UHGV virus genome: UHGV-0138297
Strand: one strand, 5' to 3'
From: a virus
Length of the DNA stretch: 23,481 bases
Shown in pieces: positions 298 through 20,552 of the stretch; the first letter of the stretch is position 1, and each line of letters starts with the position of its first letter. The position numbers and the translations under genes are program-made. The notes below the pieces were generated by a model. The model was not told the origin of the DNA, searched no databases, and worked only from the letters and a program-made list of their open reading frames with translations.

Positions 298-1266
298 TTA
301 GATTTCTGGTTTCATTCTTCCAAAAACCTTTTCTATTCCTTTTTCGTATTCTTCTCTTGTCTCACTCATCGCTGCGACCCCAAGAAGCTTACCGATATGC
401 TGACGCAAAGCCTTGACACCAATTTCAGAAAGGAACAGATGCAACTTATCAGATTGTTTTCCGTTCTCGTCTCGGCTGGCTCGAATCTGTTCAAGGATTT
501 TACCTTTACTCTTTGCTAGCGGGGTGTATATCTGCATGTTGGTTAGCTGCCCAAAACGAATAGGCCGTCCTTTCTCTGGCCTATTCAGGCCGTACAGTCG
601 ATACCACTCCTCGTATAGCTCATCTGGAAATTCCTTTTCATATTGACGAGCTTCTTCACGAACAAACGCTTTGAACTCGTCAATGACAGCCTGAACTTCT
701 GGACGATAACCAGCAAGCGCATACGCAACCCCCTTAATTCCCGCCTTAGCGGAGGCATTAATAAGTCTCTGTGCTGCGGCGGCTGCCTTTAACCGTGATT
801 GTGGTAGATCGTCATTATCTTTGGCTTCTATTAGTGCCCTACCAATATCAACAATTGCTGTAATGTCATAACCTAACGCTTGATGAACGGTTTTAGACTT
901 CGAAGTAAGTTGAAATTTATAGGGATTTTCCATTTTTCGCTGCAATTCTAGATCTCGGTATTTGCTCATATACTGAGCGCCAAGTAGTTGATCTAAATCC
1001 CTGGCATGTTCACCAATCCCTAGCAACTGAGATAATCCAGTTTTCGTAACAACGACAGTTTTCGACTCGTCATCCAGTACATAACATTCAGCATCAATGC
1101 CAAAATCATCTAAAAAGTTACCACGATGAGTTGCCCTGAGAATCTTACTTTTCCATCTTGCAGCAGCTGCTTTCTTTGCTATTTCAGAACGCTGCTCTTT
1201 AGTCAGCGACTTTGCGCGAGCGATCCCGCCCTTAGCTTTCCCTTCACTACTTTTCTTTTCTGTCAT
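298..1266 (-). CDS. P63C-domain phage protein (function unknown) with a basic N-terminal segment; accessory (moron) gene
   Basis: 322-aa ORF. SD AAGGTG lies 8 nt upstream of the ATG at 1266. The N-terminal 45 residues are Lys/Arg/Ala-rich (KAKGGIARAKSLTKEQRSEIAKKAAAARWKSK). The P63C family assignment is from memory of prophage annotations, not from a search. The gene has its own promoter and terminators. Confidence 0.75.
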   Translation of the reverse strand: MTEKKSSEGKAKGGIARAKSLTKEQRSEIAKKAAAARWKSKILRATHRGNFLDDFGIDAECYVLDDESKTVVVTKTGLSQLLGIGEHARDLDQLLGAQYMSKYRDLELQRKMENPYKFQLTSKSKTVHQALGYDITAIVDIGRALIEAKDNDDLPQSRLKAAAAAQRLINASAKAGIKGVAYALAGYRPEVQAVIDEFKAFVREEARQYEKEFPDELYEEWYRLYGLNRPEKGRPIRFGQLTNMQIYTPLAKSKGKILEQIRASRDENGKQSDKLHLFLSEIGVKALRQHIGKLLGVAAMSETREEYEKGIEKVFGRMKPEI

Positions 1267-6002: not shown

Positions 6003-6458
6003 CTATCTCCCGTGATTCAGGAAGTCGATTAGTTCTTCGCGTGTGGCGCTGTAAAACGTCACGTCATCCACGCCTTTGAAGTATTTCTTGATGGTTCCGA
6101 CACGCTTAAGGCCAATCATTGCGCAGTAAATCTGCCCGTGGCGGAATTTGCGTGCGGCGAACGATGTGACGCACTGAACGGTGGTGTTAGTCAGAATGTA
6201 TCGCCAGAACGCCAGCCCGATTTCCTTGCTGAAGCCGCGAATCTCTGGCAGGTACATGGCGTGGCAATCGAATGTCAGCGGCTGAATCTCCTGATAGTAA
6301 ACAATGCCGCCGAACTGCCCGTGCACGTTCACCTCAAAGTAACGGCAATCAGGTTTGTAGTCGTATCCATCACCGTTGTTGCTTCCGGCAATAATGTCAG
6401 GGTGATTTCCGACTGCTTCGATCAGGTCGATGTTTCGCGTTGGTTTGAACTGAATCAT
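6003..6458 (-). CDS. P22 gp14-like head/ejection accessory protein
   Basis: 151-aa ORF between the tail needle and the gp7-like gene. Its start overlaps the needle stop (TAATG). Confidence 0.75.
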   Translation of the reverse strand: MIQFKPTRNIDLIEAVGNHPDIIAGSNNGDGYDYKPDCRYFEVNVHGQFGGIVYYQEIQPLTFDCHAMYLPEIRGFSKEIGLAFWRYILTNTTVQCVTSFAARKFRHGQIYCAMIGLKRVGTIKKYFKGVDDVTFYSATREELIDFLNHGR

Positions 6459-7306
6459 TACTGCTCCGCGATTATCTTGATGGTTGTGGCAGTAAACGCC
6501 GCACCATTAGACTGAATGGTTAACGTGCTGCCATTTGTGGCAAGAAAGCCGTCTTTATCCACGCTGAAGAACGTAGCTAACAGGATGTTATCGGTTGTTG
6601 TCGCCGAGTTGCGACTGCTTACCAGAGTGTCAGGAACAGAGCCGGAAAAGGTTAGCTGCATTGACCTGTTGGAGGTTCCGCTGGGCCACGTCCCGACGAT
6701 CGACAGCTTGAATAACAGGGTTTTGTTCTCGTTGAACACAACCATCTTGTTGTTAACGGTGTCGAAGAATGGTGCCAACGAGCCGGATGACGGCGTGAGC
6801 GTTTTCAGCAGGCTAACAAGGTTGGTCGGCGCTGTCGGAATGGTTACAGATACGCCAGAGTAAACAACCTCTGACTTTTTTCGAGTAGTGGCATACTCCA
6901 GAGCATCAATGCGCGTTTCATGGTCTGAAAGCGTGTTTTGAATGGCGACAACTTCATCAGTCAGATAATCAATATCGTTTTCTGCTGTCGTTAATCGCGA
7001 ATCAAGGCCGACTATCGCCGCTTCTGCGTTAGTGATCCTTGTTTCGTGGTCCTGAATCTTCGCTTCAGCTGATGCCAGTCGAATTTCGTGATCGACCAGA
7101 ATCACATCCTGCGCATCGTTCCTGACTTGTGCGTCATAAGCGCCCTGCCCTGCTTCATTGGCCTTGTTCGCCACGTTACCAACATCTGTACCTTGCGCGA
7201 TAACGTAAAGCAGATACGACTGCGAGAAGATATTGCGTGGAAGGACTGATGTATCGAGCCGCGTAGCCTGGATGATTACCGGCTCATTGAGATTCGAATC
7301 AGCCAT
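6458..7306 (-). CDS. Tail needle (P22 gp26-like) with an extended C-terminal domain
   Basis: The true start is the internal Met ([43 protein letters not shown]...), which closely matches the P22 gp26 N-terminus as I recall it. That ATG (7306-7304) overlaps the gp10 stop (TAATG). The product is 282 aa against 233 aa for P22 gp26, with a Ser/Thr-rich C-terminal part. The ORF-track start at 7408 is an upstream extension. Confidence 0.88.
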
Positions 7307-8724
7307 TACTCGATCCTTATCTGGCAACCAGACAGAGTGACAGGTGACTTCGTGATAACGCGCAATTTGAAGCCAATGTTTTTCCTGATGCGCCCTACTT
7401 TCTTCCACAAAACGCGTTTGTCGTAAACGAACGGTTCATTCTGCTCAATCATCTGCTCACGCCCGTAATTGATGCCGTCAGTGGTTGCAGAGAGGAACAG
7501 GCGGTCGGCGTACTGCGCAACGCCAGTTGACGATTCAACCTCAAGGTCGAAAACTCTGGCGTTATCCGCTTTGAACAACGGAGTAAACAGCAGGTGTTCC
7601 TGTTGCTTGTCGTACTGGCTGCTGATGTCGAATTGCAGTTTCCCGGTAACAGATTCCAGCTTATCGCCGCACGTTATCTGATTGCCTTCGTAAATGAAGT
7701 CGATAGCGCGGTACACATCGTCATACAGGCCTGTTTTCAACACACACCATTGCGGACCATTGGCGCTTGAAGATGCGTCGTAAACAAGAACATGGCGCGG
7801 AAGGTGGATAATCAGCAATTCATGAGCATCAAACCGCAACGATTCCATCACGCCATCAGCCAGTTCATCAGCAGTGTAGGAGCGTAGTATTTTCTCAATG
7901 CTCGCGCTGGCGATTGGTGACACCTGACCGGAGCCGATGATGTATACAGACGGCGCACCTGTTGCCGGATTGCTGATGAACGCATACGAATCAGCAAACG
8001 GCGTTTTGCAGTAAGTCCCGGCGATTCCTTTTTGCACCATCAACGATGGCTGGGCGACATACAAAGCGGCACCAACAGTGGTTGCGCCCGTCAGGGAGAA
8101 ATATTCAATCGTCGATGAGCCAAAGCAGACGATGAAGTCTCGCCATGTTCCGATGCCGATGATGCCGTCAGGCTGCGACTCGGCACGATATTGTGCGCTG
8201 TAGCGGTCAGGATGCGATTCGTCTTCAGGGTCAGTGATAAACCATGAATCTGTGCCGTCTTTTGACCACGCATAACGCCCACGTAAGCGCGTAATGTCGC
8301 GGACTGAGCCTAACTCATACTGAGTAAAACCGCTGTCTGTAGGCCAGTTTGAGACGGTTTTAACCGTGCCGTCATAACGATACTCGACCAGTTGACCATT
8401 AACGCCTACCGCCTGTGATGTCCGACCATGCGCCATTGATACACGACCACTTCCGGCGACGTCACCGACTTCACTTTCGCCTTTGTACAGCTTGCCACCA
8501 CACACACGATAAACAGCATTCTGCGCCATGTTGTACTCAACTCCGCGCGATACGCCGTTCACATCAGAACGTTTGGCAATGCCCGGGAATGAGCGAAGAT
8601 ATCCGCTGCTGTTCAGGATTTCTTTGGGTGTAGCCAACATATTCACTGGCAGATAGTCGATATAGTCGGCGTTTCTAAAGTCTTTGCCGACACCTTTCAT
8701 AAGCGGAAGTTGCTGAATCGGCAT
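7306..8724 (-). CDS. Tail accessory factor, P22 gp10-like
   Basis: 472 aa, the same length as P22 gp10. Synteny gp4-gp10-gp26. Confidence 0.88.
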
Positions 8725-13861: not shown

Positions 13862-15340
13862 TCAACCTACACCACAAGGAATTGAGTAACTGGAATAGTC
13901 GGGTTGCGAAGCCGACTCCGGGCAATGCATACACATCATCAGCGCATCAGCCAGGTTAGGAGATGGAATACCGAGCTTCTGCTTCATTTCGACTTTGGTC
14001 ATCAGCTCAAGCTTTCCGTTACCGTTGAATTTGCGTTGGATCTGCGTTAGCTCTGCGAATAGCTTGTTGAGGATATTCTCTCCAATAGCCTCTTTGTCAA
14101 AGCTAAGCATTTCATCAGGGTCGGCGTATTCACCATGCTCTACCGCCCGGTATGTTCGATAAAGCCTGTCAGCCAGCGTGTAATAGAACTGCGCTCGCTT
14201 GTTTCGGAATACATCTCCAATAGTGCGGACGTTATCACCCTGCACAACTTCATCAGTCCATGCCCCAGCCTGATATGGAGCATCTTCGTCGAATGGCGAT
14301 TCACTACCTTTAAACATTGTTACGGTGACTTTCTTTCCACTGAAATAGTCTGTTATCTGTCGACGAAGCCCTGCTCCAAGTCCATCTCCATCAAACAGGA
14401 AATGATCAACATCATCGATTACCGCCAATGAAGATGCCCAATCAGCACCCTCGTTTATATCCATGAGCAGCCCTTCACATACGCGCTTAACAACTGATCC
14501 ATGTCGCACTGCATATCCTTTGGCATCTGGGCCGGTGTCTGACGGGTCATGCGCTGCAATCACTGCACCTTTAGCTTTCCATCCGAGCTTAATGTGGGCG
14601 TCTGTTGCAGCCTCTAACCATGCAAACTTGATAATAGCCATTTCTGATGCCCCCACCGGTTCACCAAGATACACATGCCGATAAAGCTCGTGATTAGCCT
14701 TCTTCATAATCTCCATATCCCTGCGGAGAGTTTCCGGGAACCATGGATTAGCTGTGTAGTTGATCTGCTTGACGATGCAGTAGCGATTACCGTTTTCGTC
14801 ATAGTCGGGGTATATGCGATTCGTAACAAAGCGCTGATGTGTATCGCTGAGTCTGTTCTTCGGGTTGTATGCAACCCATATTTCCGACTCAACCACTCGA
14901 CCATACTCAGCGCTGTAGAACTCTTTACGTACCGTTGGGATAAGCGTTTCCCATGAGTCCTTTGATACGTTTTCTGCTTCCTCTACAAGGGCGGCATCGA
15001 AGTTTGCGTAACCTTTGATATTTTCCACGTTAAGGCGCAGGAAGTCGAAACTGATACGTCCGCCGCTATTGGCAAATATCTCTGTCTTATTGATAGTCAC
15101 CAGTGAGTGGAGGTTTCGGCGGTTAATCTCTTCAACAATTTCCGCATAGCATGATTCCTTGATGGACTTCATGTACTCACGAAAACAGATAAGCTTCCAT
15201 CCGTGATAGATGACGTTATTGAGGAGGATTGTTATGAACGTTCGCGTCTTGGCGGAACCTCGCCCGCCATAAGCTACCTTGAATCTGGCTGGCTGCAGGT
15301 ATTCCTCAAACGCTTCAGGAATGCTGCATTGCTCTGTCAT
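13862..15340 (-). CDS. Terminase large subunit
   Basis: 492 aa with Walker A motif GGRGSAKT near the N-terminus. Overlaps terS by 4 nt. Confidence 0.93.
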   Translation of the reverse strand: MTEQCSIPEAFEEYLQPARFKVAYGGRGSAKTRTFITILLNNVIYHGWKLICFREYMKSIKESCYAEIVEEINRRNLHSLVTINKTEIFANSGGRISFDFLRLNVENIKGYANFDAALVEEAENVSKDSWETLIPTVRKEFYSAEYGRVVESEIWVAYNPKNRLSDTHQRFVTNRIYPDYDENGNRYCIVKQINYTANPWFPETLRRDMEIMKKANHELYRHVYLGEPVGASEMAIIKFAWLEAATDAHIKLGWKAKGAVIAAHDPSDTGPDAKGYAVRHGSVVKRVCEGLLMDINEGADWASSLAVIDDVDHFLFDGDGLGAGLRRQITDYFSGKKVTVTMFKGSESPFDEDAPYQAGAWTDEVVQGDNVRTIGDVFRNKRAQFYYTLADRLYRTYRAVEHGEYADPDEMLSFDKEAIGENILNKLFAELTQIQRKFNGNGKLELMTKVEMKQKLGIPSPNLADALMMCMHCPESASQPDYSSYSIPCGVG

Positions 15341-15780
15341 TGCGTCTCGCTTTTTACAATGTTATACACTGGAGCTTTTGGAGCCATGGAGCCGTCATCA
15401 GATGTATGGTTGACGTCCTGCTTCTCTCGCCATTTATCTTTCTGTCTGTTCTTGAGCCAGAAGATGGCGGCAGTTGTATCAGGCGGGTAATACTTCTTAA
15501 GCGGAGTTTCGACAATTCTGTTTTCAATAACACGAATATCGATGTCTGGAGCCACGAAGCCCATAGCGCGTTGATAAAGACGGTCACTAACTTCTGCATC
15601 AGCGACGGCCTTACCCTTTTTTATGGACTCCGAAAACTTAGGATAATCAAGCTTCCACTTGTTAATAGTTGACTCACTGACTTCAAAGAAATCAGCAAGT
15701 TCTGCGTCTGTATAGCCCAGCAAGCACAGTTTGCGTGCCTGTTCGGCATACGCCTCTTGATACTTTGTTGGGCGCGCCAT
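15337..15780 (-). CDS. Terminase small subunit
   Basis: 147-aa ORF immediately upstream of, and overlapping, terL. Predicted HTH-like N-terminal region. Confidence 0.8.
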   Translation of the reverse strand: MARPTKYQEAYAEQARKLCLLGYTDAELADFFEVSESTINKWKLDYPKFSESIKKGKAVADAEVSDRLYQRAMGFVAPDIDIRVIENRIVETPLKKYYPPDTTAAIFWLKNRQKDKWREKQDVNHTSDDGSMAPKAPVYNIVKSETQ

Positions 15781-16725: not shown

Positions 16726-16989
16726 CTACTTCACTTTTGCTTTTGCTTCCGCTCGCTTACGCCGGCGCTCTTCTTTCCTCTCGGCTTTTGCCATGTCCAT
16801 GAATGCCTGCATGATCGAGTTCCGCATCATGTAGCTAACAAAGTGATGATTGACACAGCCGTTTAGGCGCAGCTGCTCGCCAAACTCATCCACCGAGGCC
16901 AATGCTTCCATCATGCCCTTCTCGCCTTTCATGAACTCTGAGAAGTCGCGCCCCGCTCTGGAGGCGCATTCAATGACACGATCACTCAT
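16726..16989 (-). CDS. Hypothetical protein with basic C-terminal tail
   Basis: 87-aa ORF overlapping the KilA-N gene stop (ATGA). Lys/Arg/Glu-rich C-terminus. Confidence 0.5.
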   Translation of the reverse strand: MSDRVIECASRAGRDFSEFMKGEKGMMEALASVDEFGEQLRLNGCVNHHFVSYMMRNSIMQAFMDMAKAERKEERRRKRAEAKAKVK

Positions 16990-17483
16990 CCCGGAAGCCC
17001 GGGGATCGTAATCTGCAGCTGGTTAGCCAGGGAGTTAATCTCAGCGACCAACACTGGCTTCGTATAGCGCCATGCCGCCAGCCCTTGTCCGCAGAAACTC
17101 GCCATGTCTTTCTTCTGGTCAAACTCATGACATTTCATGTTGAGCTGCGCACTTAAGCTGTTGCGATGCTGAAGTTCTCCGGTGAAGTAGTCATCGAGGA
17201 CTTTATAGGCCGCGTACTTGAACCCGGGGTTTAACCAAGCCGCATAATCGTAAGCAACAAACTTCCCGCCATATGTTCCACCGTGTACACCGCGCTCAGT
17301 AAAAACCACAGATTCGTGGTTTTTCTCCAGCTCGGCTAAGAACTCTTTGGTCTGCTTGTTTCGCAGGTAGTGGTAAGGCGATTCAGATTCACTTTTACCA
17401 CTGGCTTTCCACATATCAGTGAGGCAGATCATGCCATCTTCACCGATACGAATTGGTTGATTGAAGAGGGTTAATGATTTCAT
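16986..17483 (-). CDS. KilA-N domain protein
   Basis: 165 aa. The N-terminal region (IRIGEDGMICLTDMWKASGK...) resembles the KilA-N DNA-binding domain. Confidence 0.75.
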   Translation of the reverse strand: MKSLTLFNQPIRIGEDGMICLTDMWKASGKSESESPYHYLRNKQTKEFLAELEKNHESVVFTERGVHGGTYGGKFVAYDYAAWLNPGFKYAAYKVLDDYFTGELQHRNSLSAQLNMKCHEFDQKKDMASFCGQGLAAWRYTKPVLVAEINSLANQLQITIPGLPG

Positions 17484-18152: not shown

Positions 18153-18598
18153 GACAGGAACAGAGCTCGCTCTGCCTTGCGGCGATTCGTGAGCCCCGGC
18201 ATCACCTTTCCGCCTGATTTATTCCAGCGCAGAAATTCATCTGCCGCGCCTTTTATATCGCCAGCATTCAGCTTTTTCAGCAGTGTAGATGTGGAAAGAG
18301 CACGCGACCCAACGTTGTAAGCGAACGACACCAGTGCGTCGAACTGGCCTTGTGTCAGCTTCACCCTGACAACTTTCAGCACGTCATTCTCATAACCAAC
18401 AAGCCCTGTTTTCAGAAGCCTGTCAGCGGTTTGCTGGTCGATAGTCATACCGCGCTTTACTGGCTTTCCGTCAACCGGATGGGTCCAGCCATAGCCGATG
18501 GTCCACGGCGCATCTCCCGTTCCGGGGTCTGGGTAAGCAGTCAGCCGACAACCTTCAAATTTTTTTATCAGAGCAATTCCGTCAGGACTGGTTTGCAT
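18149..18598 (-). CDS. Phage lysozyme (T4/P22 gp19-type, GH24)
   Basis: From the internal Met ([24 protein letters not shown]...) the protein matches the P22 gp19 pattern and ends ...[18 protein letters not shown] lies 6 nt upstream. The ATG sits inside the holin 3' end. The ORF-track start at 18670 is an upstream extension. Confidence 0.9.
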
Positions 18599-18899
18599 CG
18601 TCAACTCCCGCCTTTTTTGCTGCAAGTTTTTTAATAAGATTGCCGATCGAATCGGTGCCGATGTATCCAATAAAGACGCTGGCTATGTAGGCGAGGTTGC
18701 TGCTCAGGCCGATAAAGTCCAGAAGGTCACGAACGAACCAGGCAATCATCGCGCACATCAGCGCATCAATTAGCGTTTTTGTTACCGCGCCGCCGTTATA
18801 GCGACCACGCAGATACGCCATGATAAAAGCCAGCATTGCACCAATACCCTGCTCCTTGGCGGCAAGTAGCGCAGCGATGAAATCTTGTTTGTATGGCAA
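18582..18899 (-). CDS. S: Class I holin, lambda S-like, probably TTG-initiated
   Basis: Sequence from ...[31 protein letters not shown]... to the C-terminus is near-identical to lambda S as I recall it. I place the start at TTG 18899 (SD GGAG 6 nt upstream, 10 nt after the HNH stop), which gives 105 aa. The alternative ATG at 18935 overlaps the HNH gene by 26 nt and adds a 12-residue Arg/Lys-rich extension. Confidence 0.85.
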
Positions 18900-18909
18900 T
18901 TTTTTCTCC

Positions 18910-19410
18910 CTACGCCTGGCACGCGAATTGACCATGATATTTCCCCCTAAACTCTGAGATTACCAACTCAGCAAGTTCGAGATCATCGAAGTAACCCAAC
19001 CAGATCTGCTTCTTATTTCTACTTCCGCAAACTCTCCATTTCCCATTCTTAACATCAAGCCTGACGCCCTTTATGGGATTCTTTCCTCCGGATGGTTTGC
19101 GTCTGTTATATTGATTTTCTGATTTGGTCGATAATCTGAGGTTTTTAATGCCATTGTTTAATGGGTTTCTATCTAAATGATCCACGTCCATTTCTGGCAT
19201 GCATCCATATACATACAACCAAGCCAGCCGATGCTCTTTATAGATTTTCCCATCTATACGTATTTGCCTGTAACCAGATCCATTAATCGTTCCAGCTCTT
19301 GAGCCAACTTTAATTCTGCGATTGCTGGATTTAACCCAAGTAAAAACCCCTGAAACAGGCTCATAGTGCATAAGGCTTTTCAGGACTTGCTGAGTGATTA
19401 CCATCTTCAT
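18910..19410 (-). CDS. HNH homing endonuclease with AP2-like DNA-binding domain
   Basis: 166 aa with an HNH motif region ([46 protein letters not shown]) and an AP2-like C-terminal segment ([28 protein letters not shown]). AT-rich relative to its neighbours. Start context is GAGGAGAGAGACT-ATGAAGATG. Confidence 0.88.
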
Positions 19411-19928: not shown

Positions 19929-20552
19929 CTAACGTGTGACCGCATTCAAAATGTTGTCTGCGATTGACTCTTCTTTGTGGCATTGCACCACCAGAGCGTC
20001 ATACAGTGGCTTAACAGTGCGTGACCAGGTGGGTTGAGTAAGGTTTGGGATTAGCATCGTTACAGCGCGATATGCGGCGCTTGCTGGCATTCTTGAATAG
20101 CCGACACCTTTGCATCTTCCGCATTCTTTCTCAACAACTCTCCCCCACAGCTCTGTTTTTGATATATCAACCGCACGGCCTGTACCGTGGCAATCTCTGC
20201 ATCTTGCCCCCGGCGTCGCGGCACTACGGCAATAATCCGCATAAGCGAATGTTGCGAGCACTTGCAGTACCTTTGCCTTAGTATTTCCTTCGAGCTTTGC
20301 CACACCACGGTATTTCCCCGATACCTTGTGTGCAAATTGCATCAGATAGTTGATAGCCTTTTGTTTGTCGTTCTGGCTGAGTTCGTGCTTACCGCAGAAT
20401 GCAGCCATACCGAATCCGGCTTGTGATTGCGCCATCCCCATAGCAGCCATCACATCAGTACCGGAAAGAGAGTCAGAAGCCGTGGCCCGTGGTGAGTCGC
20501 TCATCATCGGGCTTTTTGGCGAATGAAATTTAGCTACGCTTTCGAGTCTCAT
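19929..20552 (-). CDS. Q: Late antiterminator Q (lambda type)
   Basis: 207 aa, essentially matching lambda Q as I recall it (MRLESVAKFHSPKSPMMSDSPRATASDS...), including the zinc-binding Cys cluster CRDCHGTGR...CGRCKG. Confidence 0.93.
   Translation of the reverse strand: MRLESVAKFHSPKSPMMSDSPRATASDSLSGTDVMAAMGMAQSQAGFGMAAFCGKHELSQNDKQKAINYLMQFAHKVSGKYRGVAKLEGNTKAKVLQVLATFAYADYCRSAATPGARCRDCHGTGRAVDISKTELWGRVVEKECGRCKGVGYSRMPASAAYRAVTMLIPNLTQPTWSRTVKPLYDALVVQCHKEESIADNILNAVTR

Follow-up and report, generated by a model that had tools for sequence, protein, structure and literature searches.

The needle gene and its setting

The DNA analyzed here, referred to as the window, is the whole stretch of 23,481 nucleotides from the virus genome UHGV-0138297. 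Every gene of the window is encoded on the minus strand; together they constitute a late region of P22-like type, in the order small and large terminase, portal, scaffold, coat, gp4, gp10, needle, gp14, gp7, gp20, and gp16, and lysis genes, the Q antiterminator, and nin genes are located upstream of this morphogenetic module. The gene under study and its immediate surroundings comprise the following features.

6458..7306 (-): tail needle gene, orthologue of Sf6 gene 9 and P22 gene 26; 282 codons plus TAA
7314..7318 (-): AAGGA, a Shine-Dalgarno-like motif read from the sequence, with a 7-nt spacer to the needle ATG
7307..7408 (-): spurious 34-codon upstream part of the mechanically called open reading frame (ORF), out of frame within the gp10 gene
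7306..8724 (-): upstream neighbor, gp10 or tail hub (head closure Hc3), 472 aa; PHROG 578, E value of 7.6e-229
6003..6458 (-): downstream neighbor, gp14 homologue (DUF2824, "head morphogenesis"), 151 aa; PHROG 651, E value of 1.1e-77

Translation of the needle ORF from the ATG at 7306 gave a protein of 282 aa with the C-terminal end TIKIIAEQ, and both this ORF and the protein strings quoted in the first-pass annotation of this DNA were present on the minus strand at 6458 to 7306. The mechanically called ORF starts instead from a GTG at 7408 and encodes 316 aa, which is 34 codons too long and reaches into the gp10 homologue. We place the start at the ATG at 7306, because this codon overlaps the gp10 TAA stop by one base (TAATG) and is preceded by AAGGA, because Sf6 genes 8, 9, and 10 have the same start and stop junctions as gp10, the needle gene, and gp14 in the window, and because all reference needles in the alignment (Sf6, HK620, and P22) start with MAD. 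The needle stop overlaps the ATG of the gp14 homologue likewise (TAATG), and the succession gp10, needle, gp14, gp7, gp20, and gp16 with TAATG overlaps is that of Sf6. The earlier observation that the start had been overcalled by 34 codons into gp10 was thus correct. The value of this for annotation is that the gene is given a start at ATG 7306 instead of GTG 7408, with the product name "tail needle knob protein."

With a probability of about 97%, we identify the gene product as a tail needle of the well-characterized Sf6 type, belonging to a P22-like (Lederbergvirus) Escherichia coli phage or prophage. The protein matched PHROG 1030 ("tail needle knob") over residues 1 to 282 with an E value of 1.3e-132. 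Besides, it matched the Pfam family PF16532 (Phage_tail_NK, "Sf6-type phage tail needle knob") over model positions 2 to 175 of 175, with an E value of 1.7e-107 and a score of 357 bits (cutoff, 27 bits). Sf6 gp9, which has 282 aa like this needle, aligned with it without gaps and was identical at 239 of the 282 positions (85%). The first-pass identification of the protein as a tail needle is confirmed by the PHROG match and this alignment. Nothing of substance speaks against the Sf6-type assignment. A scan of the needle protein against NCBIfam returned no family match, which is a gap in that library and no contradiction; near-identical proteins nonetheless bear the name "tail needle knob protein" in RefSeq. 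Weak Pfam matches to coiled-coil families (DUF4349, XhlA, CCDC22, PUMA_CC, and ATG16) were all under the gathering cutoffs and were discarded, as they reflect the heptad shaft only. Both the protein and the Sf6-type knob class are already known and commonplace; the significance of the assignment is accordingly small and consists in placing the gene in a well-studied class of Sf6-type knobbed needles, which today are known from hundreds of E. coli prophages.

Regarding the window as a whole, no phage record covered at least 80% of it, the best being CUS-3 with 60% coverage and 94% identity, and no complete E. coli genome covered at least 80% of it, the best being that of strain PK5 (73%). Mosaic in the way usual for P22-like elements, the window is no copy of a named phage.

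Several other ORFs of the window were noted in passing. A 166-aa ORF with an HNH_3 domain and a weak AP2 match, at 18910 to 19410 (-), sits between the Q antiterminator (19929 to 20552) and the holin (18582 to 18935), with which it overlaps at its end. It resembles a homing-type HNH endonuclease that has been inserted into the leader of the late operon. Another HNH gene is found in the prophage of E. coli EEC_W5, between scaffold and coat. A 165-aa protein with KilA-N and ORF11CD3 domains is encoded at 16986 to 17483 (-), in the interval from the Rz lysis gene to the gene of the small terminase. The small terminase ORF itself (147 aa; 15337 to 15780 [-], listed with 13862 to 15340 [-]) matched only positions 132 to 275 of the 319 in PHROG 309, and it may be a shorter variant or may start further upstream. 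Just downstream of the gp16 homologue, a 322-aa P63C protein (PF10546, E value of 7e-14; PHROG 2384, function unknown) is encoded at 298 to 1266 (-), at the position where the sieA and immI genes lie in P22. The approximately 480 nt between the P63C gene and gp16 (1267 to 1750) contain no ORF of at least 100 aa.

Plug, shaft, and knob

The needle protein was divided into the following segments.

7127..7306 (-): N-terminal helical-hairpin plug (residues 1 to 60), from identity to Sf6 and HK620 and a match to 8EAP_B, with its role taken from PMC9728967
6887..7126 (-): coiled-coil shaft (residues 61 to 140), trimeric by homology, from the heptad phase and the alignment with the helical core of P22 gp26
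6932..7090 (-): divergent shaft allele, a mosaic segment (residues 73 to 125), from segment identities
6461..6886 (-): Sf6-type knob with a TNF-like jellyroll (residues 141 to 282), from identity to 3RWN and 4K6B, PF16532, contact residues, and Foldseek

Identity to Sf6 gp9 by segment was as follows.

Residues 1 to 72 (plug and shaft start): 96%
Residues 73 to 125 (coiled-coil shaft): 34%
Residues 126 to 282 (shaft end and knob): 97%

The differences from Sf6 gp9 are therefore concentrated in a single segment, residues 73 to 125. Residues 1 to 72, nearly identical to those of Sf6, were 93% identical to those of HK620 and 75% identical to those of a P22 strain, and among PDB sequences the plug matched 8EAP_B, a 62-aa N-terminal chain of P22 gp26, with an E value of 7e-28. 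Residues 60 to 140 showed one dominant heptad phase, with hydrophobic residues at 17 of the 23 a and d positions, compared with 10 or fewer in the other phases, and the length of the shaft equals that of Sf6, 11 heptads.

The segment from 73 to 125, with its low identity to Sf6, is also only 43% identical to HK620, and it is identical in the needle of the E. coli EEC_W5 prophage. Mosaicism among needle shafts has been described, the shaft of HS1 being 67% identical to that of Sf6 (PMC3741392), and a divergent shaft allele is therefore to be expected in Sf6-type needles.

A difference in shaft length was seen in another needle. In P22 strain ATCC 19585-B1 (AB426868.1, positions 1001 to 1639 of the stretch compared), gp26 is annotated with 212 aa, whereas the crystallized P22 needle (PDB 2POH) has 233 aa, and shaft residues are missing from the former in the alignment. 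This suggests that the length of the shaft varies in heptad units among needles.

In a search of all PDB sequences, residues 131 to 282 were 97% identical to the Sf6 knob 3RWN (E value of 9.8e-89) and to the HS1 knob 4K6B (E value of 2.9e-88), with four or five substitutions and no gaps. 3RWN is the Sf6 knob structure of Bhardwaj et al. 2011, as cited in PMC9728967, and 4K6B is the knob of the needle of E. coli prophage HS1 (Leavitt et al. 2013, PMC3741392). Within the knob, 138 of 142 residues were identical to Sf6, and the four differences (query residue, position, Sf6 residue) were S176T, L198F, S212A, and A270S. The crystals of Sf6 and HS1 have been used to name the residues contacting L-glutamate and a Ser-Arg-Asn triad contacting phosphate (PMC3741392). 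All of the glutamate contact positions (E146, K200, S248, D250, L255, and K277) were conserved in the window's needle, which would probably bind L-glutamate as well, and the phosphate triad S231-R232-N233 was conserved at the same positions. Sf6 gp9 has all of these contact residues and, as described above, the same gene position and junctions. The C-terminal region was indeed rich in Ser, Thr, and Asn, as the first reading had stated: these account for 36% of residues 141 to 282 versus 20% of residues 1 to 140.

It had also been proposed to predict the structure of the needle trimer and to compare it with known knobs. We modeled residues 126 to 282 as a monomer with AlphaFold2 and no alignment, and the resulting model was of low confidence (mean pLDDT of 59.6, pTM of 0.59). 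When this model was compared with the PDB by Foldseek, the six best chains all belonged to 3RWN and 4K6B (TM score of 0.70, E value of approximately 1e-17), and the next matches were TNF-family ligands (EDA-A1, 4-1BBL, and C1q-like proteins) and PRD1 P5, in agreement with the published "TNF-like fold." Because of this low confidence, the fold match serves only as support; it is the 97% sequence identity to crystal structures that settles the fold of the knob.

The tip compared with those of P22, HK620, Sf6, and HS1

The gp26 needles of P22 and HK620 (2POH, 3C9I, and 5BU5) have the same gene position and the same role as a plug of the tail hub as this needle, and their plug and shaft are homologous to residues 1 to approximately 144, with E values of approximately 1e-44 to 1e-48. 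In the PDB search, alignments with the needles of P22 and HK620 ended at residues 144 to 153. Beyond this point the similarity is lost: residues 141 to 282 were 17 to 21% identical to the P22/HK620 tip, with 55 residues opposite gaps, and homology to a P22-type tip was thus not found. The tip of P22 and HK620 consists of 93 residues (141 to 233), whereas this needle carries an unrelated TNF-like knob of 142 residues. The P22-type tip is replaced by the knob from about residue 140, which is a domain swap with nothing appended.

The first-pass annotation had described a C-terminal extension of about 50 residues relative to P22 gp26 and an N-terminal third resembling that protein. The difference in length is real, amounting to 49 residues (282 versus 233 aa), but it is no extension, because a 93-residue tip gives way to an unrelated 142-residue knob. 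Likewise, the N-terminal homology to P22 gp26 was found (75% over residues 1 to 72), but the homology extends over the N-terminal half of the protein, comprising plug and shaft, and not over a third. A knob like that of Sf6 had been anticipated at the distal end, and this was borne out by the identity to 3RWN and 4K6B and by PF16532, which matches end to end. HK620 had been named as a further bearer of such a knob, which is incorrect: HK620 gp26 has 233 aa with a P22-type tip, HK620 is the type example of subtype A, with that tip (PMC3741392), and the solved knobs are those of Sf6 and HS1. Two small misconceptions are thereby corrected, namely, that the P22 tip is extended, when the knob in fact replaces it, and that HK620 has a knob.

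The needle can be placed within the published family. According to Leavitt et al. 2013 (PMC3741392), P22-like phages have exactly two classes of needle tip, and the Sf6-type knob, defined by similarity to Sf6 residues 140 to 282, occurs in 69 of 164 P22-like genomes. These 69 knobs differ from each other by at most 4.9%, and all come from phages of Escherichia or Shigella (PMC3741392). The window's knob, differing from that of Sf6 at 4 of 142 residues (2.8%), is inside this range. Compared with HS1, the needle shares Ala-270, where Sf6 has Ser, whereas at position 134, where HS1 has Ser, it has Asp as Sf6 does. Furthermore, the HS1 needle has 317 aa and 16 shaft heptads (PMC3741392), whereas this needle has a shaft of Sf6 length with 11 heptads.

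We considered whether the C-terminal region might be a new, uncharacterized type of knob on a P22-like needle, as had been put forward unless the region should align over its full length with characterized needle knobs. In favor of such novelty stand only the length of 282 aa, compared with 233 aa, and a tip that does not resemble those of P22 and HK620. Yet the region aligned without gaps and over its full length, at 97% identity, with the two solved knobs of Sf6 and HS1, PF16532 covered it end to end, the ligand-contact residues were kept, and its divergence lies inside the published Sf6-type range, so that there is next to no chance of a new knob type. It is just as hard to believe that the needle really has the length of P22 gp26 and owes its apparent surplus to a wrongly placed stop, to a frameshift, or to faulty assembly, and nothing was found that speaks for this. 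The frame stays in gapless register with Sf6 gp9 up to the shared last residues (IKIIAEQ) and stops where gp9 does, the overlap of the stop with the next ATG is exactly that of Sf6, and the identical protein is found on 26 independent contigs; the alignment and the contigs effectively rule out a needle of P22 length. We therefore retain the assignment to the Sf6 type, with a full-length knob of the known class.

Proposed working and distribution of the needle

Given the near identity to trimeric crystal structures, the needle is probably a homotrimer with three parts, the plug, the shaft, and the knob. The N-terminal helical hairpin (approximately residues 1 to 60) would plug the channel of the hexameric gp10 tail hub and hold the packaged DNA in the head (PMC9728967). 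The coiled-coil shaft (approximately residues 61 to 140, about 11 heptads) would project past the tailspikes, and the TNF-like jellyroll knob (residues 141 to 282) would form the distal tip, farther out than any other part of the virion. The needle would then be expelled as infection starts. Published genetic work shows that the tip tunes the kinetics of DNA delivery: changes to it alter K+ efflux and DNA-delivery kinetics, the host range is unchanged by swaps of the tip, and abolishing the binding of glutamate had no laboratory phenotype (PMC3741392, PMC9728967). We infer that the plug and kinetic roles carry over to the needle of the window. It is conceivable that the differing shaft allele of Sf6 length, together with S176, L198, and S212, alters ejection kinetics or the way in which the needle interacts with an envelope component relative to the needles of Sf6 and HS1, although we regard this as very unlikely, and, even if true, it would still be allelic variation inside a known family.

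A protein with exactly this 282-aa sequence has already been deposited at NCBI for E. coli (EGI4709457.1 and others) and occurs on 26 contigs. Closely similar to it is the "tail needle knob protein" of the E. coli EEC_W5 prophage (WP_489637681.1), which is identical at 277 of 282 positions (98%), including the divergent shaft allele, and differs by five point substitutions. Among 5,426 complete E. coli genomes, the needle gene had at least a partial match in 956, with the best matches mostly at 90 to 95% identity, and was covered to at least 80% in 312, with strain EEC_W5 giving the best match; all of the best genome matches listed are annotated as "tail needle knob protein." More than 100 small P22-like remnants that keep an Sf6-type needle gene have been reported in E. 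coli (PMC3741392), and the numbers of partial and full matches fit such widespread remnants.

The needle gene of the window might, by analogy, be a nonfunctional relic, carried as decaying cargo of a small P22-like remnant, and the abundance of such remnants in E. coli (PMC3741392), as well as the partial or better matches in so many genomes, would accord with this. The gene lies, however, inside a complete and uninterrupted morphogenetic module running from terminase through gp16, accompanied by lysis and nin genes, and an intact module counts against a small needle-containing remnant. The ORF is also intact, and its key residues are all conserved. A relic is thus improbable, and we favor the main reading, an Sf6-type tail needle belonging to a P22-like phage or prophage.

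Needles of this kind are found in various phages. Those of Sf6, N7, Louie, Kapi1, and phiKp_30 were 84 to 85% identical to the protein of the window, and those of Gally, JEP4, and vB_EcoP-720R6 were 74 to 75% identical. Remoter homologues of the knob were found in large phages of Salmonella, Dickeya, and Aeromonas, and knob homologues in large phages had also been reported in 2013 (PMC3741392).
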